NCBI GenBank assembly: GCA_902790675.1
Contig: CADASU010000005.1
Location: 20,301 to 84,300, forward strand
Length of the DNA stretch: 64,000 nucleotides
Source of the DNA: Oscillospiraceae bacterium
GTDB taxonomy: Bacteria > Bacillota > Clostridia > Oscillospirales > Ruminococcaceae
Direction of reading: 5' to 3'
Each line of letters opens with the position of its first letter. Position 1 is the stretch's first letter. Positions 7,187 through 58,586 of the stretch are shown here, piece by piece. Made by a program: the position numbers and the translations under genes. Under the pieces are notes generated by a model. The model saw only the letters and a list, made by a program, of their open reading frames with translations, was not told the DNA's origin and did no database searches.

Positions 7187-7327
7187 TTTTTATACCTCCA
7201 TTTGGTTATACCTCCACATATTTTTTAATAATTAGACTATTTGCTTACAGCTCACCAAATCTAAATTAAATATGTGTGTGATTTAATATTTTTTACGTGC
7301 TACATATGAAAAGTGCAACACTTCTGA

Positions 7328-7356
7328 ATTATAACATATAATCCAAAATGTTGCAA
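7328..7356 (-). promoter_or_regulatory. Sigma-A-type promoter for rpsB-tsf
   Basis: The minus strand reads TTGCAA, a 17-nt spacer, then TATAAT (plus-strand coordinates 7351-7356 and 7328-7333). Confidence 0.55.
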
Positions 7357-7374
7357 ACAATTTTTTAATAAAAT

Positions 7375-13513: not shown

Positions 13514-13614
13514 AAATGCACCTCTTAATTCATTAAGTCAATGCCATTTTATGCTAGCAATAAAAAAATATTCCTGAAATTTTTATCTATTCACTGATAT
13601 TATCATCAAGCACT

Positions 13615-14466: not shown

Positions 14467-15836
14467 CTTTCTGCCAATGGTTTATATGATATCTCCCTAG
14501 TAATAGACTTATAGGCAGGTCTAATAATTCTTCTGCCAGTTAATAATTCTTCCATTCTGTGCGCTGCCCATCCAGCTATTCTCGCAGTAGCAAATAACGG
14601 CGTATATAACTCAGGCGGTATTCCAAGCATTTGGTAAACTAAGCCAGAATACATATCAACATTTGACGATATAACTTTTTGAGTTTGTTTCTTTTCTGCA
14701 AAAACATGTGGTGACAATTTTTCAATATTTTCAATTAACTTAAACTGCGCCTCATATTCGGTTCCTTTAGCTAAACTCATTGCACATTTTTTCAATATAA
14801 CCGATCTTGGATCTGACTTCGTGTAAACCGCGTGGCCCATACCATATATTAAACCAGAACCATCTCCAGCTTTTTTATCTATTATTTTGCCCAAATATGA
14901 CTTAATCTCATCTAAATCTTCCCAATCACTAACGCCTTTTTGTATATCATTAAGCATAGACATCACTTTTCTATTAGCTCCACCATGCTTAGGCCCTTTC
15001 AACGCCCCTATAGCTCCTGCATACGCTGAATATGCATCAGTTCCCGTAGATGTTAAGCAACGACAGGTAAATGTGGAATTATTGCCGCCACCATGTTCGG
15101 CATGAAGCATAAGCATAATGTCGAGAAGGTGGGCCTCTTCAATTGTATATTTTCTATCTAAACGCAACGTAGATAAAATGCTTTGTGCAATACTTTCTTC
15201 AGGATTAATAGAATGTATAACCAAACTTTCCTTGTCGAAAGCTTTACATTTAGCATGATATGCAGAAATCATTATATTAGATAGCCTTGCTATAATTTCA
15301 ATTGCTTTTCTCAGCTCTTGCTCAATTGTTATAACATCAGCATATTCATCATAAGTATATAACGAAAGCAGCGACGACTGCATTTTATTCATTATATTTT
15401 TAGACGGCCTTTTTAATATAACATCTTCAATAAACCCATCAGGCAATTCTCTATACATTGCCAAAACGCCTTTAAAGTAATCTATTTCTTCTTTGCGAGG
15501 AAGCTCACCAAAAAGCAACAAATATATTACTTCCTCAAATCCAAATCTTTTTGTTTTAATGCAATCATTAACAATATCGTTTATGTTATAGCCTCTATAA
15601 ATCAGTCTGCCTTCTTCAGGCTTCTTTTCTCCCTCATCTATAACATATCCATGAACATTGCATATCAAAGTTAACCCTGCTAAAACTCCCGTTCCATCAG
15701 AATTTCTAAGCCCCCTTTTTACATCAAGAGTTGAATATAGGTCAGATTCTATATGATTATTTTTTTTAAATTCTCTACATAAAATATCTATAGCTTCTTT
15801 TTTTTTTGCGCTATAATTTGGTGTCTTTTTTTTCAT
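14463..15836 (-). CDS. Citrate synthase
   Basis: 457 aa with citrate synthase catalytic-region patterns LHAEHGGGNNSTF and GMGHAVY. Confidence 0.85.
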   Translation of the reverse strand: MKKKTPNYSAKKKEAIDILCREFKKNNHIESDLYSTLDVKRGLRNSDGTGVLAGLTLICNVHGYVIDEGEKKPEEGRLIYRGYNINDIVNDCIKTKRFGFEEVIYLLLFGELPRKEEIDYFKGVLAMYRELPDGFIEDVILKRPSKNIMNKMQSSLLSLYTYDEYADVITIEQELRKAIEIIARLSNIMISAYHAKCKAFDKESLVIHSINPEESIAQSILSTLRLDRKYTIEEAHLLDIMLMLHAEHGGGNNSTFTCRCLTSTGTDAYSAYAGAIGALKGPKHGGANRKVMSMLNDIQKGVSDWEDLDEIKSYLGKIIDKKAGDGSGLIYGMGHAVYTKSDPRSVILKKCAMSLAKGTEYEAQFKLIENIEKLSPHVFAEKKQTQKVISSNVDMYSGLVYQMLGIPPELYTPLFATARIAGWAAHRMEELLTGRRIIRPAYKSITREISYKPLAER

Positions 15837-16045
15837 TAACGTACCACTCCAAAACTAAATAAAAAATATTCATACTGAAATATAAAAATACGTATCATCT
15901 ATAACAGAAATTAATTATACAATATTATCCATTTAAAGTCAAGGAATCAAACTATCCAACAAAGCCAATATTATGCCAATAATACAAAATAAATATGCTG
16001 AGAAATAAATATTTAAAACTATAGAAAGGACTATTAAAATTTAAA

Positions 16046-16984
16046 ATGAAAAAAATAAAAATATTATCAATAATTTGCATTTTAGCAATCATTCCATTTA
16101 TTGGATGCATTTCCCTTAATAAAGAAACTACCCCACCCAATGAAAATCAGCTTACTAAAAACCTTCTGCAAGAAAAAGTTAAAATAATAGTAAATGATAA
16201 TATAAAAGAAACAACAATGGAAGAATATTTAATTGGGGTTATAGCTGCAGAAATATCACCAACATATCAAATCGAAGCAATAAAAGCTCAAATTATAGCC
16301 GCCCATACATATGCATTAAATAGATATGGAGAAACAGGGCCTTTTCCAACAAATCCTAATGTTTTTCAAGCATATATAAATAAAGAGCAACGACAAAACA
16401 AATATAAAAACAATTTTGAAAAATATGAAAAAATTTTCCAAGACGCTGTTAATAGCGTTGCAAACAAAATAATTACATACGACAATTTACCCATAAAGGC
16501 TGTTTTTCACCATATGTCTGCAGGGAAAACCGAAAACAGCAGTAACGTTTGGGGCGGATCAATTCCCTATTTAGTTGAGGCAGATAGCTCTGCTGAAACA
16601 AATTTACAAAGCTTTCATAAAACAATAACTATAAATATAAATGACCTATACAACACAATAAAAAAAGACTTTCCAGATGCAACAATATCAAATATAAAAC
16701 AAAATAATGTTAAAATATTATCGACATCCAAATCAGGCTATGTTACAAACATAAAAATTTTTAATATAGATCTACCCGGAACCAAATTAAGGTCCATATT
16801 AAAGCTACCTTCCACTAATTTTAGCATATCAATCGAAAACGACACTGTTATCTTTGACTGCAAAGGAAACGGCCATGGAGTAGGTATGAGTCAATGCGGA
16901 GCGAATGAATTAGCAAGTCAAGGAAAAAATCACGAAGAAATATTAAAACATTATTATAATGGAGTATCAATAACACTTTTATGA
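16046..16984 (+). CDS. spoIID: Stage II sporulation protein D (SpoIID/LytB domain)
   Basis: N-terminal TM segment, then [33 protein letters not shown] and [11 protein letters not shown], both typical of SpoIID. Confidence 0.85.
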
Positions 16985-19815
16985 TTATTATTTCTGAGCA
17001 TTTCTTTTAAATACTGCCCAGTATATGATTTTTTATTATCGGCAATTTGCTCTGGAGTTCCAGTTCCAACAATTTCTCCACCTTTGTCTCCACCATCAGG
17101 CCCAAGATCTATTATATAATCCGCCACCTTTATTACATCTAAATTATGTTCAATTAAAAGCACCGTATTTCCCAAATCAACCAATTTTTGTAATACACCA
17201 ATCAATTTTCTAACATCGTCTGTGTGAAGCCCCGTTGTAGGCTCATCTAAAATATACATAGTTTTTCCCGTCGATTTCTTTGAAAGTTCAGTTGCAAGTT
17301 TAACTCTCTGAGCTTCTCCTCCAGACAGTGTTGTCGCAGACTGGCCTAATTTAATATATCCCAATCCAACATCAGAAAGAGTCTGAAGTTTTCTTTTTAT
17401 TTTAGGATGGTGTTCAAAAAACAAAATGGCTTCTTCAACCGTCATATTTAAAACATCGTGTATATTTTTCTCTTTATATTTCACCCGCAAAGTTTCTCTA
17501 TTGTATCTTTTTCCCTTACAAACCTCACACGGCACAAAAACATCAGGCAAAAAATGCATTTCTATTTTTACAATACCGTCACCCTTACACTGCTCACATC
17601 TTCCTCCCTTAACATTAAAGCTAAATCTACCCGCGCTATATCCATACATTTTAGCATCACTTGTATTAGCAAATAGTTCTCGTATATCATTAAAAACTGA
17701 TGTATATGTTCCTGGATTAGACCTAGGAGTTCTTCCAATAGGACTTTGATCTATATCAATAACTTTATCTAAATTTTCAAGTCCTTTAACCTTTTTAAAT
17801 TTGCCCGCTTTAACTTTAGCTCTATTTAATTTAGCCGACAAATGCTTATGAATAATTCGATTCACAAGCGAACTCTTTCCAGAGCCCGAAACTCCCGTAA
17901 CACAAGTAAAAGTTCCTAAAGGAATTTTTACGTTAATATTTTTCAAATTATTTTCACTGCAACCAATAAATTCTAAAAATTTTCCATTTCCTTTCCTTCT
18001 TGCAGAAGGAATTTCTATAAGCTTTTTTCCACATAAATACTGAGCAGTTATAGATTTATCACAATTATACATTTCTTCAATTGGTCCGTTAAAAACAACT
18101 TCTCCTCCATGCACACCCGGTCCAGGGCCTATATCAACAACCCAATCAGAAGATTTTATAGTATCTTCATCATGTTCTACAACTATAAGAGTGTTTCCAA
18201 TATCTTTAAGTTTTTTCAATGTGTCTATCAATTTGTCATTATCTTTTTGATGCAGCCCAATAGAAGGCTCGTCCAATATATATAAAACACCAATTAATGA
18301 CGATCCTATCTGTGTTGCCAATCTAATGCGCTGACTTTCACCCCCAGATAAAGTTGCAGAGGCTCGAGATAATGTTAAATATTCCAAACCAACAGACTGC
18401 AAAAATTCCAATCTACCTTCTATTTCCTTTATTAATAAATCAGATATAAATTTTTCTCTATCTGTTAATTTCAAATCTCTTAAAAACTTAATTGAATCTT
18501 TTACGCTCATATTGGTAAATTCACTAATGTTTTTTCCGCCCACAGTTACGCTCAAAATTATCTCATTTAATCTATCTCCATTACACTCACTGCAAACAAC
18601 TTCATCCATATATTGAGAAATATCATTTTTAACCCATTCACTGTTGCTTTCTTTATATCTACGTTCTAAATTATTAACTATTCCTTCAAATGCTACATCA
18701 TATGTTCCATTAATATATTTAGTATTTCTAGAAATTTTTATTTTTTTTCCATTTGTTCCATATAGTAAAATTTTTTGAATTTTCTTCGGAAGCTCACAGT
18801 AAGGTGTATCTAAAGAAAAATTATATTCTTCCGACAAAGCTGTATAGTACATGTTAGCAATACTGTCCTTTTTACCATATGTCCATCCAGTGGCTGTAAT
18901 TGCTCCGTCTTTTATTGATAATTCTTCATTAGGCACAATTAATTCAGGATCTATCTTAGTAAACTTTCCAATTCCCATGCATGATTTGCAAGCTCCATAA
19001 GGATTATTAAAAGAAAACATTCGCGGAGTAAGTTCTTCAATAGACACACCATGCTCTGGACAAGCATAATCCTGAGAAAATAAAATATCATCTCCACCTT
19101 GTATACTGATAACAATAAGTCCATTAGTCAACTTAGAAACAATTTCTAAACTATCTGCCAATCTAGATCGTATTTTTTCTCCTACAATTAATCTATCCAC
19201 AACTATATCAATATTGTGTTTCTTGTTTTTTTCTAAGTCAACATCTTCGGAAAGATCATATAAAGTCCCGTCTATTCTTAATCGTATAAATCCATTTTGT
19301 CTAGCATCTTCAATTTCTTTAACATGCTTACCTTTTTTTCCGCGAACAATTGGCGCTAAAACTTGAATTTTTGTTTTTTCCGGCATCTCTAATATTTTGT
19401 CAACTATCTGGTCGATTGTTTGATGCACTATTTCTTTTCCACAAATCGGGCAATGGGGCACCCCTATTCTAGCATACAAAAGTCTTAAATAATCATATAT
19501 TTCAGTAACTGTTCCAACAGTAGATCGTGGATTTTTAGAAGTAGTTTTTTGATCGATAGAAATTGCGGGAGATAGTCCTTCAATATCATCTACATTAGGC
19601 TTTTCCATTTGTCCTAAAAATTGACGAGCATATGAAGATAAACTTTCCATATATCTTCTTTGTCCATCAGCAAATATCGTATCAAACGCCAATGAACTCT
19701 TTCCAGAGCCAGAAACACCAGTAAAAACAATCAACTTATCTCTAGGTATTTCTAAATTAATATCTTTTAAATTATTTTCTTTTGCTCCTTTTATTATTAT
19801 TTTATCCTTTGCCAT
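16954..19815 (-). CDS. uvrA: Excinuclease ABC subunit A
   Basis: Two ABC modules ([10 protein letters not shown] twice, LSGGE signatures) and CxxC zinc modules. Start trimmed to [11 protein letters not shown] (AGGAG upstream). Confidence 0.95.
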
Positions 19816-19828
19816 TTTGTAAAAACTC

Positions 19829-21811
19829 CTATTTTTTATCAATCAACTTTTTTAACTCGTCAATTTTATTTCGAATTTGAATTGCATATTCAAAGTCAAG
19901 CATTTGTGCAGCATCATTCATTTCAACAGAAAGCTTATCAATCAACTTTCTTATTTCCTGCTTGTCTGTTTTCTTATCATAGTTAATTTCATTTAATTTT
20001 TCCTTTTGAGATATTTCAATAACATCTCTAATTCCTTTTTTAATGGTTTTAGGCACTATACCGTGTTTTTTATTATAATTCATCTGAATATTTCGGCGTC
20101 TCAAAGTTTCAGTAATAGCTCTTGCCATAGAGCCCGTAACTTCATCAGCATATAAAATAACTTTTCCGTTTTGATTTCTAGCAGCCCTCCCTATTGTTTG
20201 AATCAAAGAAGTCTCTGACCGCAAAAATCCCTCTTTATCCGCATCTAAAATAGCTACAAGTGAAACTTCCGGTATATCTAAGCCCTCACGAAGCAAATTT
20301 ATTCCAATCAATACATCAAATTCACCCAATCTAAAATCTCGAATAATTTCCATTCTCTCCATAGTATCTATATCAGAATGCATATATTTACATTTTATAT
20401 CTACATTTTCAAAAAATTCAGACAAATCTTCAGCCATTTTTTTAGTTAGAGTTGTAATTAAAGTTCTCTCGCTTTTTTCTGCTCTAGTTTGTATTTCCGA
20501 AATTAAATCCTCAATTTGACCAGAAACTGGTCTAACTTCAATTTCGGGGTCCAAAAGTCCTGTAGGCCTAATAACCTGTTCAATCATAGCTTTACTATGA
20601 CTTTTTTCAAAATCACTTGGGGTTGCGCTTACGTAAACAACTTGATTTATTTTATCATAAAACTCATCAAAATTTAACGGCCTATTATCGTAAGCCGAAG
20701 GCAGGCGAAACCCAAAATCAACTAAAGTCTTTTTTCTAGCATGATCTCCTGCATACATCGCCCTAATTTGCGAAAGCATAACATGACTCTCATCAATAAA
20801 CATAAGAAAATCTTCAGGAAAATGGTCTAAAAGAGTATAAGGAATTGAACCAGGCATGCGTCTTGCTAAAATTCTAGAATAATTTTCTATTCCCTTACAA
20901 AAGCCTGTTTCTCTAAGCATTTCAATATCATACATAGTCCGCTGTCTTATTCTCTGCGCTTCAACCAACATTTCATTATCGTTAAAATACTTAATTCTAT
21001 CCTTCAGCTCAGATTCAATATCATTTATAGCAACGTTCAATTTATCTTGACTAACAATATAATGAGACGCCGGGAAAATAGCAACATGCGACACTCTTTC
21101 TTGGACATTTCCAGTTATTGCATTTATTGTGCTAATTCTATCAATTTCATCGCCAAAAAATTCAACTCTAACTGCACTATCTGAAGAATATGCAGGAAAT
21201 ATGTCAACAACATCACCATGCACTCTAAATTTATTACGACTAAAATTAATATCATTTCGCTCGTATTGAAGACTTACTAGTTGATTCAACAAATCGTCTC
21301 TATTTTTTTCCATATTTTGCCTTAAGCTTATAACCATACTACGATAATCTATAGGGCTACCTAAACTATATATACAAGACACACTTGCTACAATTATAAC
21401 ATCTCTTCTCTCAGAAAGCGCACATGTTGCAGAATGTCTAAGTTTATCAATTTCATCATTTATAGATGAGTCCTTTTCAATATACGTGTCAGTTGAAGGA
21501 ACATATGATTCAGGTTGATAATAATCATAATACGACACAAAGTATTCAACTGCATTGTTAGGAAAAAACTCTTTAAATTCACTGCATAATTGTGCAGCTA
21601 ATGTTTTATTATGAGCTAAAACAAGTGTTGGCCTGTTTAACTTTGCAATAACATTCGCCATAGTAAAAGTTTTTCCAGAACCAGTAACGCCAATTAACGT
21701 TTGTTCTCTATTCCCGCTACATATACTATCAACCAAAGCATCTATTGCTTGAGGCTGATCTCCAGTAGGTTTGTATTTAGACTTTAATTCAAACTTATCC
21801 AAAACAATCAC
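19829..21811 (-). CDS. uvrB: Excinuclease ABC subunit B
   Basis: [13 protein letters not shown] helicase motifs and a C-terminal UVR domain. Confidence 0.95.
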
Positions 21812-49472: not shown

Positions 49473-49862
49473 GGGGGCGTAAGGGATTCGACGGGAATGA
49501 AAGTGTATGATAAGCGAGTAGAGGAGATGCCACCTCTATAAAAGGCATATTTAAATTTTAAATGCAAAAAATAATGCAAGTATAGGCTTTGTTAACAGCA
49601 AAGCTCTTTTGGCAGCTTAATTAATTTTGCCAAGGTTGTATTCTAGTTTTGCTGCGAACTGAATTCAACTTCATTTGATTTTAGCAGTAAACAGTTCATG
49701 GAATATCTCAGTTCTTTGAACAGTGAATTAATGAGATACTCTATTTTATCGGTTTGCTTTTTGTCTATATAATATGAGGAATTTCTAACAATAAGCTACA
49801 CTCGTAGAAAGTTATACATACTCACTTTTCGGACAGGGGTTCAACTCCCCTCGCCTCCACCA
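49473..49862 (+). ncRNA. ssrA: tmRNA (SsrA)
   Basis: The 5' end GGGGGCGTAAGGGATTCGACGGG and the 3' end GGACAGGGGTTCAACTCCCCTCGCCTCCACCA form the tRNA-like domain. The internal reading frame GCA AAA AAT AAT GCA AGT ATA GGC TTT GTT AAC AGC AAA GCT CTT TTG GCA GCT TAA gives the tag AKNNASIGFVNSKALLAA, but the resume codon is not certain. Confidence 0.92.
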
Positions 49863-49882
49863 CTAGAACATGTAAAAATTTT

Positions 49883-49921
49883 AAGGCTTCCTGAGTTCAT
49901 ATTTTTCAGGAAGCCTTTTTC
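49883..49921 (+). terminator. Rho-independent terminator of ssrA
   Basis: Perfect 12-bp stem AAGGCTTCCTGA (49883-49894) / TCAGGAAGCCTT (49906-49917) followed by TTT. Confidence 0.8.
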
Positions 49922-50024
49922 TGCTATTTATCCAAATTAAATAATTAAATTTATCAATTTTTATTACAATTCAGCTTATGATAATCATACAAAAACATAT
50001 AATTTTTATTTTAAATATGTTGTA

Positions 50025-51394
50025 TTAACTATTCATAAATTTTTTAATTTTATCTTCATATCCTCCTTTAAAAAATGCACATGTTGACTCATCTTTTCCG
50101 TAGAAATCTCCAGTACCCGCAAAAGCAATAACTCTACAATGTCCACCTCCACATTTTTCCCTATATTCGCAATTTCTACATTCTTTATTTCTGTCAAACA
50201 AATCTTGAACGGTTGTCAATACTGTGCTTAAATAATTAGATTTTGTCAATATATCTTTTAACTTCATATTTTTTAAATTTTCAAAATTCATGTTATATTT
50301 TTTTGCATATCCATTCCAACCGTTACATGGCAAAACTTGTCCATCAGGAGCAATGAAAATTTCATCTCTCGTGCGCCAGCAAGCTACCTGTTTAGAAAAA
50401 TCTGAAGTTTCATTACACTTTAGTGGAACAATGGACAAAATATTTGCTTGATTATCGGCAAAGCAAAAGTCTTTTAAATAAAATGCTACGTTCCAATTTT
50501 TTTCTTGTGTGCATAAAGTAAATCTATGTAAGCATCATAGCAATCTTCATATGATAAAGCTTTATTTTCCTCCGGAAGTAGACTCCATCGTAATGTCTCA
50601 GCAGTTCTATATACTTCAACTTGAGTAACGCCCATATTATTCATAAGTTCAACTGTGTCGTTAAGAACATGAATATTACCTTGGTGTATACAACATACAG
50701 CTATAACATAAAAATCATTTTCCACTAACATCTTTATTGCATTTAACGCATCTTTTTCTGCACCATCTACTCCTCTCATCCAATTATGATATCCTATGCC
50801 ATCAAAACTAACACTAAATGATGGCTTTATGTTTCTTTTTATTATTTCATCAATAAATTCTTTGGTTATAAGTGAACCATTTGTGTTTATGGAAGCAATT
50901 TTAACATTTCTTTTTAATAATTCATCCACAATGTCAAAAAAGTCATTTCTAAGAAGTGGCTCTCCACCTGTAAAAATAACTCTTTCTATTCCACAGTCTG
51001 CTATTTGATTAGCTATATCCAAACAGTCTTCAAGTGGTAGTTCATCGTTCCTGTTTTCACCATCAGATGCCATAAAACAATGTCGACATTTGTAGTTACA
51101 TCTTTCTGTAAGTCCCCACCTAACTTGATGAAAATACCTATTATTAAAAAATTTATATTGTTGATTTGTTTCTAATTTCTTACCTTCTTCGTTCAAATGA
51201 ATAATATTTGCGTTTAATAATTGTTTAATAACATCATTATTTTCCAAATCATGGTTTCCATCACATTTCTTTAATATGTCAAACTCTTCTAAATCTAAAG
51301 TTCTTACTGATGCATTTTTGTTAATATTAAATAAAACTCTTGGAATTCTCAACCAGCCTCTAAGACCTAATTACCTATTTAATAATAATTTCAT
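50025..51394 (-). pseudogene. Radical SAM/SPASM peptide-maturase gene, interrupted (in-frame TAA at codon 8 and a frameshift at an A7 run); may be a pseudogene, a sequencing artefact or a recoded gene
   Basis: Track ORF 50486-51352 carries the radical SAM core CNYKCRHC (CxxxCxxC) and a GGEPLL-type segment. Track ORF 50025-50438 carries a Cys-rich SPASM-type tail (CRNCEYREKCGGGHC; 8 Cys in total). The two frames are joined by one extra A in the A7 run (plus-strand T7 at 50497-50503), giving ...LLYAHKKKNWNVAFYLKDFCFADNQANILSIVPLKCNE.... Upstream, a strong SD (GGAGGG, 5 nt) precedes ATG 51394, giving MKLLLNR-TAA(51371-51373)-LGLRGW-(TTG 51352)RIPRVLFNINKNASVRTLDLEEFDILKKCDG, all in one frame. 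Confidence 0.6.
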
Positions 51395-51471
51395 AACAGC
51401 CCTCCATTACTCAACATATTAAATTATATGTACTATAAATAATATATATCTTATGTCTATTTTTGCCAAAT

Positions 51472-51500
51472 AATATAAAGGTTTTATCTATTTTTGTCAA
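51472..51500 (-). promoter_or_regulatory. Sigma-A-type promoter for the radical SAM gene
   Basis: The minus strand reads TTGACA (plus 51495-51500), a 17-nt spacer, then TATATT (plus 51472-51477). Confidence 0.5.
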
Positions 51501-51648
51501 CATATTTACAATATTTCATATTAATTTATAAATATAACGATAAAATTAATTACTTTTAAAGTTATTTTGTTTGATGTAAAATTACTTCACATCTATAATC
51601 AAAAATTGGTCAAAAACGTGTACTTATATATTTCCTAATAAAGCACAT

Positions 51649-51692
51649 CAAAAAATTACCCTTCATCAACAATTGCTTTAATGAAGGGTAAT
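51649..51692 (-). terminator. Rho-independent terminator of the KS-KS'-DH-ACP operon
   Basis: Perfect 12-bp stem ATTACCCTTCAT (51655-51666) / ATGAAGGGTAAT (51681-51692). On the minus strand it is followed by TTTTT. Confidence 0.7.
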
Positions 51693-51764
51693 TTAAAACC
51701 ACATACATCTATTGTAAAAAAACACCCAAACTTATATTTGCTTAATATTATTTATTAAAGATTA

Positions 51765-52004
51765 TTATTTCTTGTTACTCTCAATTATATTAACTATGTC
51801 TTCAATTGTTCTAAGCTCAGAAATTTTTTCAGGCTCAACAACAACATTAAATTTTCCTTCAACCATTCCAAATACTTCAAGTATGTTTAAAGAATCCAAG
51901 CCTACTTCCTCCAGAAGATTTGCATCTCTTGGAATATCATCGGTATCCTTCCCAGTAATCTTGCTTAACTCTTCCCTAACCATTTTTTCAGTATCATTCA
52001 TCAC
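51765..52004 (-). CDS. Acyl carrier protein (cluster-dedicated)
   Basis: 79 aa and acidic, with a GLDSLNILE phosphopantetheine attachment motif (DSL). Confidence 0.82.
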   Translation of the reverse strand: MMNDTEKMVREELSKITGKDTDDIPRDANLLEEVGLDSLNILEVFGMVEGKFNVVVEPEKISELRTIEDIVNIIESNKK

Positions 52005-52036
52005 AAAAGCCTCCTTAATTTTAAAATAATTATTAT

Positions 52037-52450
52037 TTATTTTATTACTATAGTTAGCTCTGCTTCAGCTGCCATGACATTATCAACATACGTAGAACAA
52101 TCTGCTCTTAAAACTCTAAAAGAGTCCTTTATAACTTCCATTTTAACCGATATTAAATCACAAGGCAACACTAATTTTTTGAATTTTACGTTTTGCATTT
52201 CTGCAACAACAGGAATTCCGTCTATTTTTCTAGTATACCCAACAAAAGCTGCGGTAAGTTGAGCCATAATCTCACAGAGAATAGATCCTGGTACAATTTT
52301 TTTATAAGGATAATGCCCATCCAAAAAAAACTCATTTCCTTTAACTTTATATATACCCTCAGCACAAGTTCCATCTATACTAACAATTTCATCCAACAAT
52401 AACATACTATTTCTATGAGGAATTAATTTTTTTAAATCAAACTCCTTCAT
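52037..52450 (-). CDS. FabZ-like 3-hydroxyacyl-ACP dehydratase (hot-dog fold)
   Basis: LIPHRNSMLLLDEIV and GHYPYKKIVPGSILCEIMAQ match the FabZ patterns LPHR.P.LLVD and GHFP..P.mPGVL..EA.AQ. Confidence 0.82.
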   Translation of the reverse strand: MKEFDLKKLIPHRNSMLLLDEIVSIDGTCAEGIYKVKGNEFFLDGHYPYKKIVPGSILCEIMAQLTAAFVGYTRKIDGIPVVAEMQNVKFKKLVLPCDLISVKMEVIKDSFRVLRADCSTYVDNVMAAEAELTIVIK

Positions 52451-52452
52451 AA

Positions 52453-53385
52453 TTAATTAGCGCCTCCTGTCAATTGTATCGCAGAAACAAAACCTCCAGC
52501 ATCCCCACAAATGATTAAACTATCTTTAGTCAACTTATTTTTATAATTTGACAAGCATCTTCCAAGATCAATAATAGGAGTTATTGAAAACATATTTTTG
52601 TTAATTAATGGCTGAACTTCTATATCGTCCTTTTCCAGCTGATTTAATATATCGTTTGCTATGTCAAAATCTCCAGACAAATAAATATCAACTGCTTTCA
52701 AGTCAGCGTCAAAAGCTTTCTCCAATGAACAAATACACTCTTTTGCACTAACATGACCTAAATATCTTGAATAACAATTTTTAATATAACAAATAGGCTG
52801 CTGCTCTGATTTTTCTTTTTCATAACTATTTATAAAAACAATAGAAGAACCTATTTCTTCTGTAGCACAAGCCAATATCTGAGTTGAATTTTTATATTTT
52901 ATATTATAGTAAGCATCTATAATCGCATTCAAGCCAGAATGAACCCCTTCAGATAGCGCATAAACTTTACCTCTAAATTGATTCCAAATGCACAATCTAC
53001 TTACAACAGCATTTCCAACAGTATTTGTAAAAGACGTAGGATTTACAAAATTAGCACCCTTTTCTTCAATTGACAAATTAAATTCAGCAGAAGGATAAAT
53101 AGCAGAAGAATAGCTTCCTGCTATTACTGACAAATTATGTCGATCTATGTCATCAAACATTCCCTTATCCTCAGCCAATTTCGCTGCTGCTTCTAAGGTT
53201 AGCGATTGCCTGTCCACAAGTCGCGTGTTTAAATTTCCCAATGACTGCGTCAATTTCTCTATTGAGCAAAAGTTTATATTTCCAGATTTTTCATTTACTT
53301 TTCTTACAAAATCATGTGTCTGCATGTAATTAAATCCAAAGTCTTCGATATAATAAAAAGCTGAATAAATTGCAATTTTCTCCAT
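52453..53385 (-). CDS. Ketosynthase-like protein lacking the catalytic Cys/His/His (chain-length-factor-like partner)
   Basis: 310 aa. The region DRHNLSVIAGSYSS...FVNPTSFTNTVGNAVVSRLCIWNQFRGKVYALSEGVHSGLNAIIDAY aligns by eye to the KS N-terminal domain, but the active-site Cys position is SEG and no HGTGT or GH.LG motifs are present. It is translationally coupled on both sides (gaps of 4 and 2 nt). Confidence 0.55.
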   Translation of the reverse strand: MEKIAIYSAFYYIEDFGFNYMQTHDFVRKVNEKSGNINFCSIEKLTQSLGNLNTRLVDRQSLTLEAAAKLAEDKGMFDDIDRHNLSVIAGSYSSAIYPSAEFNLSIEEKGANFVNPTSFTNTVGNAVVSRLCIWNQFRGKVYALSEGVHSGLNAIIDAYYNIKYKNSTQILACATEEIGSSIVFINSYEKEKSEQQPICYIKNCYSRYLGHVSAKECICSLEKAFDADLKAVDIYLSGDFDIANDILNQLEKDDIEVQPLINKNMFSITPIIDLGRCLSNYKNKLTKDSLIICGDAGGFVSAIQLTGGAN

Positions 53386-53389
53386 TTTA

Positions 53390-54640
53390 TCATACCTCCT
53401 TGTATCTAGAAATAACTAAGCTTGAATTATTTCCACCAAACGCAAAAGAGTTTGAAAGTATATTATCTATTTTCATTTCTCGGCTAACATTAGGAACACA
53501 ATCTACTGGACAATCTTCATCTGGTTCTTCGAAGTTAGCTGTTGGAGTAATCATATTATTTTGAATCATTAAAACACAAGCAACTGCCTCAATAGCTGCT
53601 GACGCTCCTAATGAATGCCCTATCATAGACTTTATAGAACTAACCGGAGGAATCTTATCTCCAAATACAGAGCATATTGCTTTGGACTCTATTTTGTCAT
53701 TCAATTTTGTACCCGTGCCGTGCGCAGAAATATAATCTATATCTTCAGGAGAAATTTGTGATTTTTGTAAAGCTTCTTTCATTGAAGAAATTGGTCCTGA
53801 TGAGTCTGGTCTTGGTGCTGTAATGTGGTAGGCATCTATGCTTAAACCATATCCTTTAATTTCTCCATATATATGTGCTTTTCTCCTTAAGGCTGATTCC
53901 AAATCTTCCAAGATTAAAATTCCACAGCCTTCACTTACAACCAAACCTTTTCGATTTTTATCAAAAGGTCTACACACGTCACTAGTAAGAGAAAGTAATC
54001 TATTAAACCCAATTAAAGCAGTTAGTGAAAAAGAATCCACTCCACCCACTATGGCTACTTGGGCATCACCATGTTTTATCCTATCATATCCCCAGCCTAT
54101 CGAATAGTTTCCTGCTGCACAAGCATTCAAAAAAAGACGTGATTCCATATTTTTAAAATTAAAATATTTACAAACTGTAGATAGAATATCTCCAGGATAT
54201 AAATTTTTAATAGCATTATTACATAAATTCTGATCTTTACTTTGCAATAAATTTTGAAACAAATTATAATTTATTTGATAATCTGCTTTTTGTGAGCTCT
54301 TACCCATGGTACTTCCTAAAGAAATTACCATTTTATTGCTTATATCATCTAGGTTTAGTTTACTATCTTCTAACGCCATATTAATCGACTTTATTGTCAT
54401 CTTTTCCGATCTATCTATTTCCGCAAATTTTATGCCATTTCGATCTGCTAAATAATGCGATTTGTTAAAGTCTTTGATTTCTCCAGATATTTTAACCCTT
54501 AAGTCATTAAAAGAATCGAAAGAAGTTGGCCCAGTAAAAACTTTACCATTTGATATATTTTCCCAAAAGGCATCCTTTCCAATGCTTCCCGGCGCCATGA
54601 CTTCAATACCAGTTACTACAACTCGATTCAAACTATTCAC
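53390..54640 (-). CDS. Beta-ketoacyl-ACP synthase (FabF/KAS II-like)
   Basis: RVVVTGIEVMAPG N-terminus, NACAAG active-site Cys, AHGTGT and GHSLGASA His motifs, NSFAFGGNNSSL C-terminus. The start is ambiguous (GTG 54640 or TTG 54631). A 6-codon mini-ORF (ATG AAA AAA GAG GGT GAA TAG) with its own GGAGGA overlaps the start. Confidence 0.85.
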   Translation of the reverse strand: MNSLNRVVVTGIEVMAPGSIGKDAFWENISNGKVFTGPTSFDSFNDLRVKISGEIKDFNKSHYLADRNGIKFAEIDRSEKMTIKSINMALEDSKLNLDDISNKMVISLGSTMGKSSQKADYQINYNLFQNLLQSKDQNLCNNAIKNLYPGDILSTVCKYFNFKNMESRLFLNACAAGNYSIGWGYDRIKHGDAQVAIVGGVDSFSLTALIGFNRLLSLTSDVCRPFDKNRKGLVVSEGCGILILEDLESALRRKAHIYGEIKGYGLSIDAYHITAPRPDSSGPISSMKEALQKSQISPEDIDYISAHGTGTKLNDKIESKAICSVFGDKIPPVSSIKSMIGHSLGASAAIEAVACVLMIQNNMITPTANFEEPDEDCPVDCVPNVSREMKIDNILSNSFAFGGNNSSLVISRYKEV

Positions 54641-54692
54641 CCTCTTTTTTCATAATTTATGTAAATCCTCCATTTTTAAAGCTACTGTAAAC

Positions 54693-54721
54693 ATTTTAAG
54701 CATTATTTTTATATAAGTCAA
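54693..54721 (-). promoter_or_regulatory. Sigma-A-type promoter for the KS operon
   Basis: The minus strand reads TTGACT (plus 54716-54721), a 17-nt spacer, then TAAAAT (plus 54693-54698). Confidence 0.55.
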
Positions 54722-54755
54722 GTAAAAACAATATATTTCGATAATTATGTACTAA

Positions 54756-54784
54756 TTGAAAATAAATTATTATAGTGTTATAAT
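54756..54784 (+). promoter_or_regulatory. Sigma-A-type promoter for fabG-like/GNAT genes (divergent from the KS promoter)
   Basis: TTGAAA (54756-54761), a 17-nt spacer ending in TGT, then TATAAT (54779-54784). Confidence 0.55.
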
Positions 54785-54818
54785 TTACTAAAATATAAAT
54801 AGGAGGTTGTAGAAAAGT

Positions 54819-55559
54819 ATGTCAAGATTAGATGGTAAAATAGCTGTTGTTACTGGTGGATCTAGAGGTATTGGAAAAGCTATTTGCTTAAAATTAGCTG
54901 AACATGGAGCCAATGTTTCTTTTGTTTATGCCAACAATAAAGAAAAAGCTGATTCTACTATTAAAGAATTGTCTAATTTTAATAATGATGGTTCAGCTTA
55001 CAAATGCGATGTGGCTGACGATTTAGCAGTAAAAGACCTAGTAAACAAAATAATAGGCAAATACGGAAAAATAGATATACTAGTAAATAATGCGGGCATT
55101 ACAGATGATAAGTTAGCTTTCAATATGGACTATAATTGTTTTAACAAAGTTATTCAAACTAATTTATTAGGCACTTTTAATATGATACACCACTGCTATA
55201 TGAATTTTATAAAAAATAATGGCGGAAGAATAATAAATATATCATCCGTGGTTGGCCTAAATGGAAATATAGGACAATCTAACTATGCAGCCTCTAAAGC
55301 CGGAATAATTGGTTTAACTAAATCTATAGCAAAAGAACTTGGTCGCAAAAATGTAACATGTAATGTAGTAGCACCAGGTTTTATAGAAACCGAAATGACA
55401 AGTAGTTTAAAAAATCCAGACAATATTCTACGTAACATACCCTTAAATAGATTTGGATCAGCTGAAGATGTTGCTGATGCTGCTTTATTTCTTGCTTCAG
55501 ATGAAGCTAAATATATAACAGGTTCAATTATAAAAGTTGATGGTGGATTAATTTTATAA
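54819..55559 (+). CDS. 3-oxoacyl-ACP reductase (FabG-like SDR)
   Basis: VVTGGSRGIGKAI, NNAGIT and the YAASKAG (YxxxK) catalytic motif; 246 aa. Confidence 0.85.
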   Translation: MSRLDGKIAVVTGGSRGIGKAICLKLAEHGANVSFVYANNKEKADSTIKELSNFNNDGSAYKCDVADDLAVKDLVNKIIGKYGKIDILVNNAGITDDKLAFNMDYNCFNKVIQTNLLGTFNMIHHCYMNFIKNNGGRIINISSVVGLNGNIGQSNYAASKAGIIGLTKSIAKELGRKNVTCNVVAPGFIETEMTSSLKNPDNILRNIPLNRFGSAEDVADAALFLASDEAKYITGSIIKVDGGLIL

Positions 55560-55609
55560 AAATTCAACTCTTAATTTTTAATATTTATTAACTTAAAGGG
55601 GGAATATAC

Positions 55610-56494
55610 TTGATTAAAATATCTAAAATTTGCACAAAAGACGATATTGCTTTGTTTAAACGCTTTATAAATGAATATATACCTTTTTCTGATGACAGTT
55701 TATGGCTTGGCGCCACTATTAACGGAATTCCATGTGGAGTCTTATTTGCAGATATTATAAGTGAAGATTCTAAAATTGGGGATATACAATTTTTATTTGT
55801 ACATCCTATAACAAGACGTATGGGTGTAGCTACAAAACTTTTAAATACATTTATTGAAGAAGCAAAAAAATTAAAGTGTAAAAAAGTTATTATTAAATCT
55901 GTAAAAGATATGAAAACAATAAATGAAATAAGTCCTTTTTTTAAAAATTACGGATTTGATCCTGTAGAAATTGAAGCAAATATTTATACTATTACACCCC
56001 AATATTTTCATGAGAGTGGTAAAATTGAAGAATTTGCCAATAGAAAAATAATAATTCCCCCAAATATAAAGATATATCCATCAGATGAAATAGATAAAAG
56101 TTTACTTGATTCTTTAAAAGCAAAAAGCGATATAGATTATTTAAAAATATACGATCCTTTTCCAGAAAATGATAAATTTAAATTAAAGCACATTAATACG
56201 CTTTTTGCAGTTTACAATTCCAATGAAATAGTAGGCTGGATGGTGGGCTTAGACGCATTTGGAGAATCTATTTATTATAAAACGCTCTTTGTAAAAGAAA
56301 AATATAGACATTTATATTTAGGATTAATTTTGCAAAACATGTGCTTAAAGAATCATATGACAAAATATCTCGATAGGTCTGTACTTCTGGGTATATCTAT
56401 AAGGAATGATCGTGCTTTAAAATTCTTTTCAATATATTCTAAGGGAATAAATAAAGATATAAATTACGAATTTAATTTTACCAAAAATTTATAA
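55610..56494 (+). CDS. Two-domain GNAT-family acyltransferase (candidate peptide N-acyltransferase)
   Basis: The N-terminal domain has a classic GNAT motif A, IQFLFVHPITRRMGVATKLLNTFIEEAKKLKCKKVII...FFKNYGF. The C-terminal half repeats a GNAT-like pattern (VGWMVGLD...LFVKEKYRHLYLGLILQNMCL...ALKFFS). TTG start after AAGGGGGA. Confidence 0.65.
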   Translation: MIKISKICTKDDIALFKRFINEYIPFSDDSLWLGATINGIPCGVLFADIISEDSKIGDIQFLFVHPITRRMGVATKLLNTFIEEAKKLKCKKVIIKSVKDMKTINEISPFFKNYGFDPVEIEANIYTITPQYFHESGKIEEFANRKIIIPPNIKIYPSDEIDKSLLDSLKAKSDIDYLKIYDPFPENDKFKLKHINTLFAVYNSNEIVGWMVGLDAFGESIYYKTLFVKEKYRHLYLGLILQNMCLKNHMTKYLDRSVLLGISIRNDRALKFFSIYSKGINKDINYEFNFTKNL

Positions 56495-56735
56495 AATCAT
56501 TTCAACAAAAACTATCAACTCATATTGCTTTTTGTCCACAATATATTATATATATATATTAGTAAGTTATTTGTTCATGTTTTGTGCATATAATGTTTTT
56601 ATAAGTCATTAGTGAATACGGAATACTATCTATAACATAAAAAAGCAAAAACATGTAAAACTATAGATCAATTTAAAAAATCAATAATATTTGTTAATAT
56701 AATTTTAATAATTTTATGAAATTATTAAAATTATA

Positions 56736-56765
56736 TTGACTTATATTGTTTATTTAGTATATAAT
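56736..56765 (+). promoter_or_regulatory. Sigma-A-type promoter for precursor genes
   Basis: TTGACT (56736-56741), an 18-nt spacer, then TATAAT (56760-56765). It is followed by a short inverted repeat ATTGATGGG-TTTA-CTCATCAAT. Confidence 0.55.
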
Positions 56766-56850
56766 ATATATTGATGGGTTTACTCATCAATGTGTATGCA
56801 ACTAGTGTTTTTTATCAACAATTAATGAACGTGAAAAGGGGAGATTATCT

Positions 56851-57132
56851 ATGACATTTAAGGAATTTTTAGAAAAACGCCCAGAAGACGTTAAAAAAGC
56901 AAAAGCATGCAAAACTATAGAGGAATTTAAAAAAATGGTAGATGGCTTTGGAATTTCTTATAAAGGAGATGCCGAGCTGCACGAAGCATTTGATATTGTT
57001 AAAAACAAATTATCAAATGAAGATTTAGATAATGTTGCAGGTGGCGCTTCTTACAAGCATAGAGGAGATCATGTGTATTACAACAAATTCAACAGCGATG
57101 TAATCACTGAGGGTACAGGTAAAAAAATATAA
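56851..57132 (+). CDS. RiPP precursor peptide 1, Nif11-like leader with double-glycine site
   Basis: 93 aa. The 65-aa leader is MTFKEFLEKRPEDVKKAKACKTIEEFKKMVDGFGISYKGDAELHEAFDIVKNKLSNEDLDNVAGG. It parallels the Nif11-type leader layout (..L.AF..K...D..L...LKA......v.iAK.aGF.It..eL....LSDeELE.VAGG). The core is ASYKHRGDHVYYNKFNSDVITEGTGKKI. Good RBS (AAGGGGAG, 7 nt). Confidence 0.78.
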   Translation: MTFKEFLEKRPEDVKKAKACKTIEEFKKMVDGFGISYKGDAELHEAFDIVKNKLSNEDLDNVAGGASYKHRGDHVYYNKFNSDVITEGTGKKI

Positions 57133-57190
57133 TAAATTTAAAAATTGAAACTAATAAGAAACATTAGATTGCATTTGGTCTCACGGAAAA

Positions 57191-57232
57191 CATAAGCCAG
57201 CTGCTGACTGCGAAATCAACAGCTGGCTTATG
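57191..57232 (+). promoter_or_regulatory. GC-rich stem-loop between the two precursor genes
   Basis: Perfect 13-bp stem CATAAGCCAGCTG (57191-57203) / CAGCTGGCTTATG (57220-57232) with a 16-nt loop. No T-run follows on the plus strand. Confidence 0.5.
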
Positions 57233-57367
57233 TGCAAAAAAACAACCAGTATATTTTCAACCCAATTTTAAACACCTTTATCTTTTTACAAATCCAATAA
57301 ATGGAGTTATTCTTCATGCTGTTGCTGTATGAAAAATAAAAAACGTAAAGAAAAGGAGGAATTCTTT

Positions 57368-57655
57368 ATGACGTTTAAAGAGTTTTTAGAAAAACGCCCA
57401 GAGGACGTAAAAAAAGCAAAAGCATGCAAAAATCTAGATGAGTTCAAAAAAATGGTAGATGGCTTTGGAATTTCTTATAAAGGAGATTCTGAATTACAAC
57501 AAGCATATGATTTGATTAAAAATAGCCAAAACCAGTTGTCAGACGATGACTTAAATAATGTTGCAGGTGGCGCTAGACTTCATAGAAAAGGAAGCGCGTT
57601 TCACAATAAAGACACCGGCGAAACCATAACTTTAGATTCAGGTAAAAAAGTATAA
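57368..57655 (+). CDS. RiPP precursor peptide 2, Nif11-like leader with double-glycine site
   Basis: 95 aa from ATG 57368 (AAAGGAGGA, 7 nt). The track start at 57329 adds an unlikely MKNKKRKEKEEFF extension that covers the RBS. The leader is MTFKEFLEKRPEDVKKAKACKNLDEFKKMVDGFGISYKGDSELQQAYDLIKNSQNQLSDDDLNNVAGG. The core is ARLHRKGSAFHNKDTGETITLDSGKKV. Confidence 0.78.
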   Translation: MTFKEFLEKRPEDVKKAKACKNLDEFKKMVDGFGISYKGDSELQQAYDLIKNSQNQLSDDDLNNVAGGARLHRKGSAFHNKDTGETITLDSGKKV

Positions 57656-57710
57656 TAATTTTAAAAATAAAGACAAACAAAGAAACTCTACGTTGCATTT
57701 GTTTCTTTGA

Positions 57711-57753
57711 AAAAAATTAGTTGTTGACTATTTTGTCAACAACTAATTTTTTT
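57711..57753 (+). terminator. Rho-independent terminator after precursor 2
   Basis: AAAAAATTAGTTGTTGAC (57711-57728), loop TATTTT, GTCAACAACTAATTTTTT (57735-57752). The stem is perfect and runs into a T tract. Confidence 0.8.
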
Positions 57754-58072
57754 CATAAGTTGCCAACAAAACAAAGTTCTTAATGTTTTTTAGTCTGATA
57801 TAATAAGATCAGTTGTTATAACTGCACATAAAAAATTTTGAGAATGTATTTACAAACTGCAAAAACATGATTTATCTTTATGTATTGTTTTAAAATAAAT
57901 ATATATCAATTCATTATAATCTAAATTTTTTAATAAAATTATTATTTGACGAATTATCTGGCGTTTGTAAATATAAACATTATTAAACACAAAAAATATA
58001 TCTATATGTACAATAAAACTAAAAAATTAAACTTTTCTTGCATACATTACTTAAAAAGCCTATTATTAAATC

Positions 58073-58122
58073 ATTAGTTATTATTTCATATCCATGTTTA
58101 TTAGTATGAAATAATAACTAAT
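58073..58122. repeat. Perfect 18-bp inverted repeat just upstream of dtd
   Basis: ATTAGTTATTATTTCATA (58073-58090), a 14-nt spacer, then TATGAAATAATAACTAAT (58105-58122). Confidence 0.7.
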
Positions 58123-58148
58123 AGTTTAACAATTGAAGGAGTTTTAAT

Positions 58149-58586
58149 ATGAAATTAGTTATTCAGCGTGTAAGCAAAGCTAGTGTAAAAGTAAATGATA
58201 AAGAAATATCAAAAATAGGAAAAGGATATTTAGTGTTAATTGGAGTAAATAATACAGATACAAAGTCCAATGCTGACTATTTAATTAATAAACTCATAAA
58301 ATTAAGACTTTTTGAAGATGAGAATGAAAAACTAAATTTATCACTAAAAGATATAAATGGTGAATTACTTTTAGTTTCACAATTTACACTCTATGCTGAC
58401 TGCTCACATGGAAATAGACCATCTTTCAAAGAAGCTGCCAAAGCATCTTATGCAAAAGATATATATGACTATTTTGTAGAGCAGTGCAAAAATATACTTC
58501 CTGTTGTTAAAGAAGGAATTTTTGGCAGTAACATGGAAATAAATTTAGTAAACGATGGACCTGTTACAATAATTATAGAAAAATAA
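58149..58586 (+). CDS. dtd: D-aminoacyl-tRNA deacylase
   Basis: MKLVIQRV N-terminus, SQFTLYAD and NDGPVT motifs; 145 aa. Confidence 0.9.
   Translation: MKLVIQRVSKASVKVNDKEISKIGKGYLVLIGVNNTDTKSNADYLINKLIKLRLFEDENEKLNLSLKDINGELLLVSQFTLYADCSHGNRPSFKEAAKASYAKDIYDYFVEQCKNILPVVKEGIFGSNMEINLVNDGPVTIIIEK

Follow-up and report, generated by a model that had tools for sequence, protein, structure and literature searches.

In this study we examined 64,000 nucleotides from an Oscillospiraceae bacterium (contig CADASU010000005.1, positions 20,301 to 84,300; this whole stretch is called the window), in which five genes at 51765-55559 encode an acyl carrier protein (ACP), a dehydratase (DH), a ketosynthase-like protein (KSL), a ketosynthase (KS) and a ketoreductase (KR). 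On balance, we favour the view that these genes specify a dedicated type II synthase without enoyl reductase (ER), built around a KS and a chain-length factor (CLF), and that its (poly)enoyl-ACP product is passed by a GNAT-family acyltransferase to the ribosomal precursor peptides encoded alongside. All five genes are intact and lie where a preliminary description of this DNA had placed them, and together they present the features of a KS/CLF system: a KS with an active triad, an adjacent homologue without the catalytic Cys, an ACP, KR and DH of its own, and no ER in the cluster. Among all open reading frames (ORFs) of at least 150 aa in the 64-kb window we found no look-alike of FabI, FabK, FabL or FabV, of FabD, of FabH or of a thioesterase, which bears out the earlier claim that a FabI/FabK/FabL-type ER, FabD, FabH and a thioesterase are lacking. 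The accompanying claim that the locus has no acyltransferase holds for a malonyl transacylase but not for the tandem GNAT encoded 50 nt past KR, a probable off-loading enzyme (Table 1).

The ketosynthase and its inactive partner

The KS had been described as catalytically complete, and its triad Cys174-His307-His342 is indeed invariant in 10 orthologues, as is K337 (numbering of the 416-aa ORF); the triad aligns with those of the PDB chain 9s5h_B, of Iga11 from the ishigamide system and of B. subtilis FabF (BsFabF). Translation probably begins at TTG 54631 and not at the GTG at 54640, since the resulting 413 aa match the length of the orthologues. Against the fabF model TIGR03150 the KS scores 356.4 bits, under the cut-off of 493.75. 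Its best matches in the PDB are 9s5h_B (342.7 bits), Iga11 (284.8 bits) and B. subtilis FabF (278.9 bits), and scores are far lower for ActKS (196), ApeO (153.8) and FabB (149).

In the KSL, the position of the nucleophilic Cys is occupied by Val148, within the motif SEGV[H/N]SG. Hidden Markov model (HMM) alignments with ketosynthases of the PDB served to map this position; MAFFT, applied to KS and KSL sequences together, misplaced the active-site region, and an hhalign comparison of the KS family with the KSL family gave nothing usable. Across 26 family sequences the residue is V, L, A, I, E or K and never C, and in the fused domain of a sister clade described below it is P. The KSL family has no invariant His anywhere, and its sole invariant Cys, C132, lies off the nucleophile elbow. 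The protein therefore carries neither a Cys-His-His triad nor the Cys-His-Asn triad of FabH, and the earlier description of it as triad-less stands.

The predicted structure of the KSL (AlphaFold, AF2; pLDDT 86) has as its top Foldseek matches the CLFs AntE (6smp/6smo) and Iga12 (6kxf_B), with TMq values of 0.70-0.73, compared with 0.51-0.57 for FabH structures. With no triad and a fold nearer to the CLFs, we reject the idea that the KSL is a FabH (KAS III) enzyme with an intact triad, which had been raised beforehand as a finding that would speak against a KS/CLF pair. In sequence, the top PDB match of the KSL family is 9s5h_C (E 2.5e-20). The short KSL is a rare family: at 90% identity, its homologues in a set of 5.8 billion proteins form 25 clusters, and a search of 1.84 billion representative proteins (50% identity) with the KSL profile returned 6 clusters at E<=1e-30, with 77 reaching 1e-10. 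Those matches listed below the family mostly cover the N-terminal half only.

The phylogenetic check suggested earlier for the KS was carried out with reference sequences taken from PDB alignments, among which housekeeping FabF was represented by BsFabF and the FabF of 5sxo. The family is monophyletic, and its sister is a clade of fused ketosynthases (support 100/99). Moving outward, these are followed by cassettes of the order KS-KSL-ACP-DH-KR, one of them inside a Paenibacillus cluster for a trans-AT polyketide synthase (PKS) and nonribosomal peptide synthetase, and then by 9s5h_B and Iga11. The two Firmicute FabFs are split from the family, its sister, the cassettes, 9s5h_B and Iga11 with support 100/100, placing the KS in a KS/CLF-type clade apart from these references. 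The ketosynthases of the sister clade are about 600 aa long and bear a C-terminal extension homologous to KSL residues 14-185 (E 3e-16). By Rosetta-stone reasoning, this natural fusion argues that KS and KSL work as a physical pair.

The KS and the KSL share their top PDB entry, 9s5h. We found no paper naming 9s5h in the searchable literature; very probably it is the FabF heterodimer of the anammox ladderane cluster, an identity that is deduced from residue numbering and chain content and not stated in the paper describing that pair. In 9s5h_B the triad is Cys170/His303/His340, in 9s5h_C the catalytic Cys is replaced by Val, and an ACP chain is part of 9s5i. In the preprint on the anammox pair, the triad of Brocadia fulgida amxFabF2 is Cys165, His298 and His335, the Cys of the inactive subunit amxFabFmut is replaced by Val, and an ACP complex is described (bioRxiv 10.64898/2026.05.19.726425). 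The offset of exactly 5 between the triads, the Val in 9s5h_C and the ACP chain in 9s5i are the basis of the identification. The two anammox subunits co-purify, and both are needed for decarboxylation of malonyl-ACP and formation of acetoacetyl-ACP (bioRxiv 10.64898/2026.05.19.726425). As the anammox pair primes by decarboxylating malonyl-ACP, FabH is not needed, which would explain a system without it. A KS/KSL heterodimer is a prediction supported indirectly by the fusion in the sister clade and, by analogy, by this co-purification. Fold search, best PDB matches, the KS tree and the fusion of a KS to half of a KSL all agree with the earlier proposal that the KS and its inactive partner are a KS/CLF-type pair.

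Among KS, DH, ACP and KR, only the KR passes an NCBIfam equivalog cut-off, that of FabG (TIGR01830, 303.8 versus 297.75 bits). Its Ser/Tyr/Lys motifs are conserved among orthologues, and the YxxxK motif makes it a FabG-type and not a FabI/FabL-type enzyme. The DH scores 93.9 bits against the FabZ model NF000582, under the cut-off of 113; its GHYP histidine and E..AQ glutamate motifs are conserved among orthologues, for which precomputed annotations read ApeI-like or ApeP-like. The ACP falls under every AcpP equivalog cut-off (best 44.5 versus 66 bits) and has its DSL serine in 10 of 10 orthologues. Neither DH nor ACP is specifically close to amxFabZ or amxACP.

Related loci and the absence of enoyl reductase

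We collected 12 distinct loci of the family. Their sources are without exception Clostridia of the gut or rumen, among them Clostridium sp. CAG:557 and an Acutalibacteraceae metagenome-assembled genome (MAG); loci are given L numbers where they have to be told apart. KR and the KS-KSL-DH-ACP block are present in all 12, in chromosomal contexts that vary between loci. Nine loci also encode FabD, biotin-protein ligase (BPL), BCCP, a fused AccC-AccD and AccA, two of which, L001 and L019, lie with BioY as well at their loci; L012/L013 are partial in this respect, with FabD, AccA and a short AccD-like gene only, and the window lineage (window and L006/L007) lacks the FabD and acetyl-CoA carboxylase (ACC) block in cis. 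The set had been called a minimal machinery. That is true of the window lineage, but not of most of its relatives, which carry FabD, biotin ligase and ACC; because the other family loci have the FabD/ACC genes in cis, the set in the window is a lineage-specific reduction and not the full design.

No ER, FabH or thioesterase is encoded in cis at any of the 12 family loci, at three sister-clade loci or in the cassettes L015, L016 and L020, so that the ER absence noted earlier in the window is conserved across all related loci examined. The best argument for reading the missing ER as part of the design and not as a borrowed function is that even where a cassette includes a carboxylase, a biotin ligase and a malonyl transacylase, an ER is never among its genes.

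The three sister loci (L014, 8927-21848; L021, 1-12707; L022, 8991-21797) each encode an ACP, a KR, the fused KS, an ApeI/ApeP-like DH and a class II lanthipeptide synthetase (LanM), together with a DUF7005 protein, an ECF-type sigma factor and several Nif11 precursors; YcaO is also found in L014 and L022. They further encode a GNAT of 307 aa that is homologous to the window GNAT (family HMM, E 3e-41). These clusters look like an undescribed family of lipo-lanthipeptides with its own ER-less synthase.

In L019, genes for a TetR-family regulator and a DegV (FakB-type fatty-acid-binding) protein lie directly upstream of KR (6742-8386) and there is no GNAT; these neighbours hint at a connection with lipid uptake or handling.

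Acyltransferase and precursor peptides

The gene directly downstream of KR encodes a protein whose AF2 model (pLDDT 84) has the tandem GNATs 2wpw, 7q3a and MshD as top Foldseek matches, while its sequence gives weak single-domain matches only in the PDB. A profile search for this family retrieved 19 proteins of about 290-320 aa, apart from one fragment; two matches are named by source, and both are unnamed GNATs, from a Bacillota MAG and from a JGI sample. The named selidamide GNATs are absent from these 19 matches. This tandem GNAT probably off-loads the synthase by carrying the chain from acyl-ACP over to the peptide.

Downstream of the GNAT lie two paralogous precursor genes, A1 and A2. The Nif11 model TIGR03798 matches six precursors of the family with E-values of 5e-5 to 0.09, all under its 32.3-bit cut-off, including A1 (6e-4) and A2 (5e-5). 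The GG motif is invariant and the leader conserved, and besides the GG site the sole conserved feature of the cores is a C-terminal G-K-K motif. The earlier suggestion of a peptide-acylating context is supported by a tandem GNAT and Nif11-like precursors, both here and in the sister clade. Across the family, the tandem GNAT is found in 9 of the 12 loci (not in L009, L017/18 or L019), and an HMM scan detected Nif11-like precursors in 6 of the 12. In the KS tree, the three GNAT-less loci fall within a crown whose other members carry the GNAT, which makes loss of the GNAT the simpler reading.

Other small ORFs with GG-type leaders were observed just downstream of AccA or a few kb off in L008 (16865-17414), L003 (16951-17487) and L010 (15283-16482), the last with four such ORFs in tandem. 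Their sequences show no relationship to those of the Nif11-like precursors.

Selection and transcription

Comparison of the window with L006, an 85%-identical locus, gave dN/dS values of 0.13 for KS, 0.15 for KSL, 0.08 for DH, 0.13 for ACP and 0.22 for KR. The five synthase genes are under purifying selection; the value for the housekeeping gene dtd is 0.16 and that for the GNAT 0.52. The same gene set is intact in a closely related strain from pig gut. In this strain, a 194-nt segment encoding GNAT residues 34-99 (55710-55905) is replaced by 194 unlike letters, and the N-terminal half of the GNAT may diversify in step with the cores of the peptides.

A metatranscriptome from the same study as the DNA of the pig-gut strain contains RNA contigs of the precursor region (56686-57700) at word depths of 1.5e4 to 1e5, about 100-1000 times the rest of the genome and above the contig bearing tmRNA (2519). 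The precursors are among the most abundant RNA contigs mapped to the window, and they are strongly transcribed in the pig-gut strain.

Proposed mechanism and alternative explanations

In the pathway that we propose, the active KS would pair with the truncated, catalytically dead KSL, and the heterodimer would prime itself by decarboxylating malonyl-ACP and then elongate the chain on the private ACP. In each round, the FabG-type KR and the FabZ-type DH would take the 3-keto intermediate to the trans-2-enoyl stage, and with no ER in the system the double bonds would stay, giving a 2-enoyl- or conjugated polyenoyl-ACP. The tandem GNAT would take acyl-ACP directly, with no thioesterase required, and would N-acylate the cores of both Nif11-type precursors, most likely at the lysines of the C-terminal GKK or at the new N-terminus. 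We infer the heterodimer, the self-priming, the acyl-ACP donor and the acylation site from the evidence above, and the unsaturated or polyene nature of the product from gene content and analogy with ishigamide-type systems. In the window lineage, ACC and FabD of the host cell would have to supply malonyl-ACP in trans, since the FabD-BPL-BCCP-AccCD-AccA block of most relatives is missing here. That malonyl loading is borrowed from primary metabolism, as had been suggested, is likely, given that relatives carry FabD/ACC in cis, that the window lineage does not, and that purifying selection nonetheless persists.

Several observations weigh against this proposal. No product is known for any family member. 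The KR, DH and KS are FabG-, FabZ- and FabF-like in sequence, Iga11 (285 bits) matches the KS hardly better than B. subtilis FabF does (279 bits), and the KS tree includes only two FabF references. There is a single DH here, compared with the ApeI/ApeP pair used by aryl-polyene systems. Since FabD and ACC are needed in trans, the organism very probably has a housekeeping type II fatty acid synthase (FAS II), whose FabK or FabI could reduce the enoyl intermediates. In the one metatranscriptome, the synthase genes have an RNA depth of 70, compared with a genome baseline of 73-149, which is no evidence of their expression; the precursor signal alone counts. Family loci without GNAT and precursors (L009, L017/18, L019), or with a GNAT and no detectable precursor (L011-L013), mean that the chain may have other acceptors. 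Furthermore, the anammox pair belongs to fatty-acid and not to polyene biosynthesis, with a preference for C6-C8 probes (bioRxiv 10.64898/2026.05.19.726425).

Some of these points would fit equally a system of the same architecture and peptide target in which the chain is saturated, or mostly so, because housekeeping FabK or FabI works in trans on the cassette's ACP. The role of the cassette would then be limited to fixing the length of the chain and delivering an ordinary fatty acyl group to the GNAT, in the manner of the selidamides, whose characterised members carry saturated or 3-hydroxy C10-C16 acyl groups (PMC8784127). The housekeeping-like sequences of KR, DH and KS and the fatty-acid pathway served by the nearest solved KS/CLF pair agree with this, and a lineage whose synthase genes are under purifying selection must already borrow FabD and ACC. 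What makes a saturated chain unlikely to us, although it deserves serious attention, is that none of the 12 family loci adds an ER, even where ACC, biotin ligase, FabD and in some cases BioY are encoded with the cassette, and that the sister clade and the distant KS-KSL-ACP-DH-KR cassettes are likewise ER-less. ER-less KS/CLF cassettes such as those for ishigamide and aryl polyenes yield polyenes even in hosts that possess FabI, which we also count against saturation. Taking the unsaturated chain and the peptide acceptor together, we tentatively suggest, as something short of an even prospect, a new class of lipopeptides among the ribosomally made peptides with post-translational modifications (RiPPs) of gut and rumen Clostridia, in which a conjugated polyenoyl chain made by an ER-less KS/CLF synthase of the cluster would be transferred from ACP by a tandem GNAT to lysines of a Cys-free Nif11-type core, with polyenoyl-lanthipeptides in the sister clade.

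The peptide connection itself would be misleading if the set were a lineage-specific general lipid synthase, for instance for an unusual membrane or pigment lipid in fatty-acid-auxotrophic gut Clostridia, with the GNAT and peptides recruited to it or simply unrelated neighbours. In L009, L017/18 and L019 the full set is accompanied by FabD, BPL, BCCP, AccCD and AccA, and no GNAT or precursor lies within 10 kb, the DegV and TetR genes of L019 lie just upstream, and the gene content equals a fab/acc regulon minus FabH and FabK. We nevertheless consider this improbable, in view of the nesting of the GNAT-less loci described above, the tie of the sister clade to GNAT, Nif11 and LanM, the rarity of the family and its differing chromosomal contexts, and the scores of ACP, KS and DH under housekeeping equivalog cut-offs; the window lineage, without FabD/ACC in cis, cannot use the set as its sole FAS. 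Finally, the locus might be a decaying relic that makes no product, as the frameshifted radical SAM (rSAM)/SPASM gene next to it (fragmented in L006/L007), one degraded precursor copy in L006 and the lack of FabD, ACC and a C39 ABC exporter in the window could indicate. We give this very little credence: none of the five synthase genes, the GNAT and the two precursors is damaged, the synthase dN/dS values of 0.08-0.22 resemble that of dtd, and the pig-gut strain, which lacks the rSAM gene, keeps the gene set intact and has very abundant precursor RNA.

Comparison with known systems

The set differs from housekeeping FAS II, of which FabH, FabD and ER are found neither in the locus nor elsewhere in the 64-kb window, and it is neither a FabH system, an aryl-polyene (APE) cluster nor a selidamide cluster in the strict sense. 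In function it is nearest to the highly reducing type II PKSs such as that for ishigamide, in sequence to the anammox FabF heterodimer, and in context to the GNAT-dependent RiPP lipopeptides. The product of the ishigamide system is a polyene. Its ACP (Iga10), KS (Iga11), CLF (Iga12), FabG-like KR (Iga13) and hot-dog DH (Iga16; PDB 6kxd/e/f) form the same five-part ER-less set; Iga11 is the second-best PDB match of the KS, and the fold of the KSL has Iga12 as one of its top matches. In contrast to the window, the ishigamide source is an actinomycete, sequence identity is modest, there is no GNAT/precursor context, the window KSL is about 50 residues shorter than the modelled Iga12, and the chain goes to a small-molecule amide and not to a ribosomal peptide.

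The APE and granadaene (cyl) systems also make polyenes with discrete FAS-like enzymes and no ER. APE biosynthesis uses the KS/CLF pair ApeO/ApeC (KS structure 6qsp), and granadaene is a Firmicute polyene that is amide-linked to a basic amino acid. ApeO, however, is a distant match of the KS at the score given above, and the features of APE and cyl clusters that are missing at the window locus are a second DH, aryl-starter enzymes, lipid-anchoring or export genes, a glycosyltransferase and a CylE-type enzyme.

The anammox pair amxFabF2/amxFabFmut (9s5h/9s5i, as deduced above) is the best solved relative of both KS and KSL. Its inactive subunit has Val at the Cys position, as does the window KSL, the motif F-x-N-T-V-x-N-A-x-x-S-R is common to both systems, and the anammox gene cluster likewise has its own ACP and FabZ. 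It differs in that amxFabFmut is of full length (412 aa) and matches only the N-terminal half of the KSL, and in that it makes ladderane lipids for the membranes of Planctomycetes, unconnected with any peptide.

Among lipidated RiPPs, the selidamides (kamptornamide, phaeornamide and nostolysamides) are made by a maturase of the GNAT superfamily that acylates the side chain of Lys or Orn (PMC8784127). Their ribosomal precursors have leaders of the Nif11/NHLP type with a GG motif, which the GG-bearing leaders in the window resemble, though with Nif11 scores below the cut-off, and the layout of the npu cluster (LanM, GNAT and Nif11) is that of the sister clade. Selidamide clusters take their acyl group from primary metabolism, whereas the cluster in the window has its own synthase, lacks LanM and arginase and encodes Cys-free cores, so that neither this acyl source nor a lanthionine macrocycle is found at the locus. 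The goadvionins and lipolanthines are RiPP/polyketide hybrids in which a synthase encoded in the cluster builds the acyl chain, as proposed here. As quoted in two sources, the GNAT GdvG uses only ACP-bound acyl groups (10.1101/2023.10.25.564083, PMC8784127); on that account it transfers the chain from ACP, and no thioesterase is needed in the goadvionin system. These compounds are actinobacterial, with a long chain from another type of synthase and avionin peptides acylated at the N-terminus. In the lipoavitides, discrete non-modular FAS-type enzymes are encoded in a RiPP cluster and an acyltransferase of the GNAT clade attaches the acyl group, but initiation is by FabH (KAS III), a short branched C7 unit results that is handled as CoA thioesters, there is no KS/CLF pair, and the source is Streptomyces (10.1101/2023.10.25.564083).

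Our literature searches returned no description of this type of cluster and no KS/CLF cassette coupled to a RiPP. The known routes to the lipid of ribosomal lipopeptides are borrowing of fatty acids (selidamides), large PKS/FAS-type machinery (goadvionins and lipolanthines) and FabH-initiated short chains (lipoavitides). A discrete ER-less KS/CLF cassette feeding a GNAT would, if confirmed, be a fourth route, probably to unsaturated tails. Its KS/CLF pair would share a FabF-derived lineage with the ladderane pair of anammox bacteria, most clusters carrying their own ACC and biotin ligase, and the family extends the newly described CLF in a FabF-type system beyond anammox bacteria. To our knowledge, almost no lipopeptides are known from anaerobic gut bacteria, and the very high transcription of the precursors in the pig-gut sample suggests that the product may be abundant in vivo. 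By analogy with granadaene, such amides of polyene and peptide could be coloured and act on membranes. Five synthase genes, one GNAT and one short precursor would also make a compact engineering set for defined lipopeptides.

Layout of the locus and neighbouring genes

The synthase island lies between smpB/tmRNA (tmRNA at 49473-49862) and dtd (58149-58586). KS, KSL and DH are separated by intergenic gaps of 2-4 nt, KSL starting 4 nt past the KS stop, and a consensus scan placed divergent promoter-like sites in the 178-bp spacer between KS and KR (Table 1). Despite the GG-type leaders, no C39-peptidase ABC exporter, immunity gene or regulator was found in 49863-58148 or elsewhere in the 64 kb.

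Table 1. Features of the acyl synthase locus in the window and of its immediate surroundings
Feature	Position	Strand	Remarks
rSAM/SPASM gene, split by a frameshift	50025-51352	-	ORFs of 288 aa (rSAM) and 137 aa (SPASM) in different frames
Terminator-like hairpin 3' of the ACP gene	51653-51694	-	17-bp stem, at the end of the KS-KSL-DH-ACP operon; consensus scan only
ACP	51765-52004	-	PP-binding match, E 2.6e-12; DSL serine
DH, FabZ-like 3-hydroxyacyl-ACP dehydratase	52037-52450	-	Pfam FabA match, E 1e-18; GHYP, E..AQ
KSL, triad-less CLF-like partner	52453-53385	-	310 aa; weak N-terminal ketoacyl-synt match alone
KS, FabF-like ketosynthase	53390-54640	-	Both Pfam ketoacyl-synt domains; 416-aa ORF
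Promoter-like site for the KS operon	54721-54693	-	10/12 consensus positions; consensus scan only
Promoter-like site for KR and GNAT	54756-54784	+	11/12 positions, extended TG; consensus scan only
KR, FabG-type 3-oxoacyl-ACP reductase	54819-55559	+	TIGR01830; Ser142/Tyr156/Lys160, YxxxK
Tandem GNAT acyltransferase	55610-56494	+	Pfam GNAT matches; predicted structure
Promoter-like site before the precursors	56736-56765		11/12 positions; consensus scan
Precursor peptide A1	56851-57132	+	Nif11-like leader, GG motif, Cys-free cationic core ending GKKI
Precursor peptide A2, paralogue of A1	57368-57655	+	Core ends GKKV

Within an A7 run (50497-50503), a single-base frameshift interrupts the rSAM/SPASM gene, and one extra A rejoins the frames; contigs of the source run show the same letters here, but as they are made from identical data they provide no independent confirmation. 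In L006/L007 the gene is in pieces, from all other family loci it is absent, and the pig-gut strain lacks the 1.5-kb rSAM/SPASM segment, the joint running from 50157 to 51650 with 41 other letters bridging the tmRNA and ACP sides. A terminator-like hairpin separates it from the ACP gene. We considered the gene as a component of the acyl system or as a cyclase of ladderane-like chains and rejected this on account of the frameshift, the fragmentation in L006/L007, the absence elsewhere and the position behind a terminator; it is not part of the acyl machinery.

Beyond dtd, the segment 59103-61347 encodes a 590-aa protein with a signal peptide followed by a 140-aa ORF, with no Pfam match at E<=0.01. 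The window has a GC content of about 30% and is a chromosome segment of the type found in spore-forming Clostridia, with the housekeeping genes trmD, ffh, tsf, rpsB, plsY, uvrAB, mutS2, era, ligA, gatAB, dnaX, recR and the spoIIIA genes. One bovine gut metagenome run contains 0.99 of the sampled words of the window, and other bovine and pig gut runs contain part of them. In L006, type I restriction-modification and MobC/NikA-like genes lie beyond the rSAM remnants (12900-20933), on the side that in the window is taken by the tmRNA gene; the locus sits at a mobile-DNA junction.

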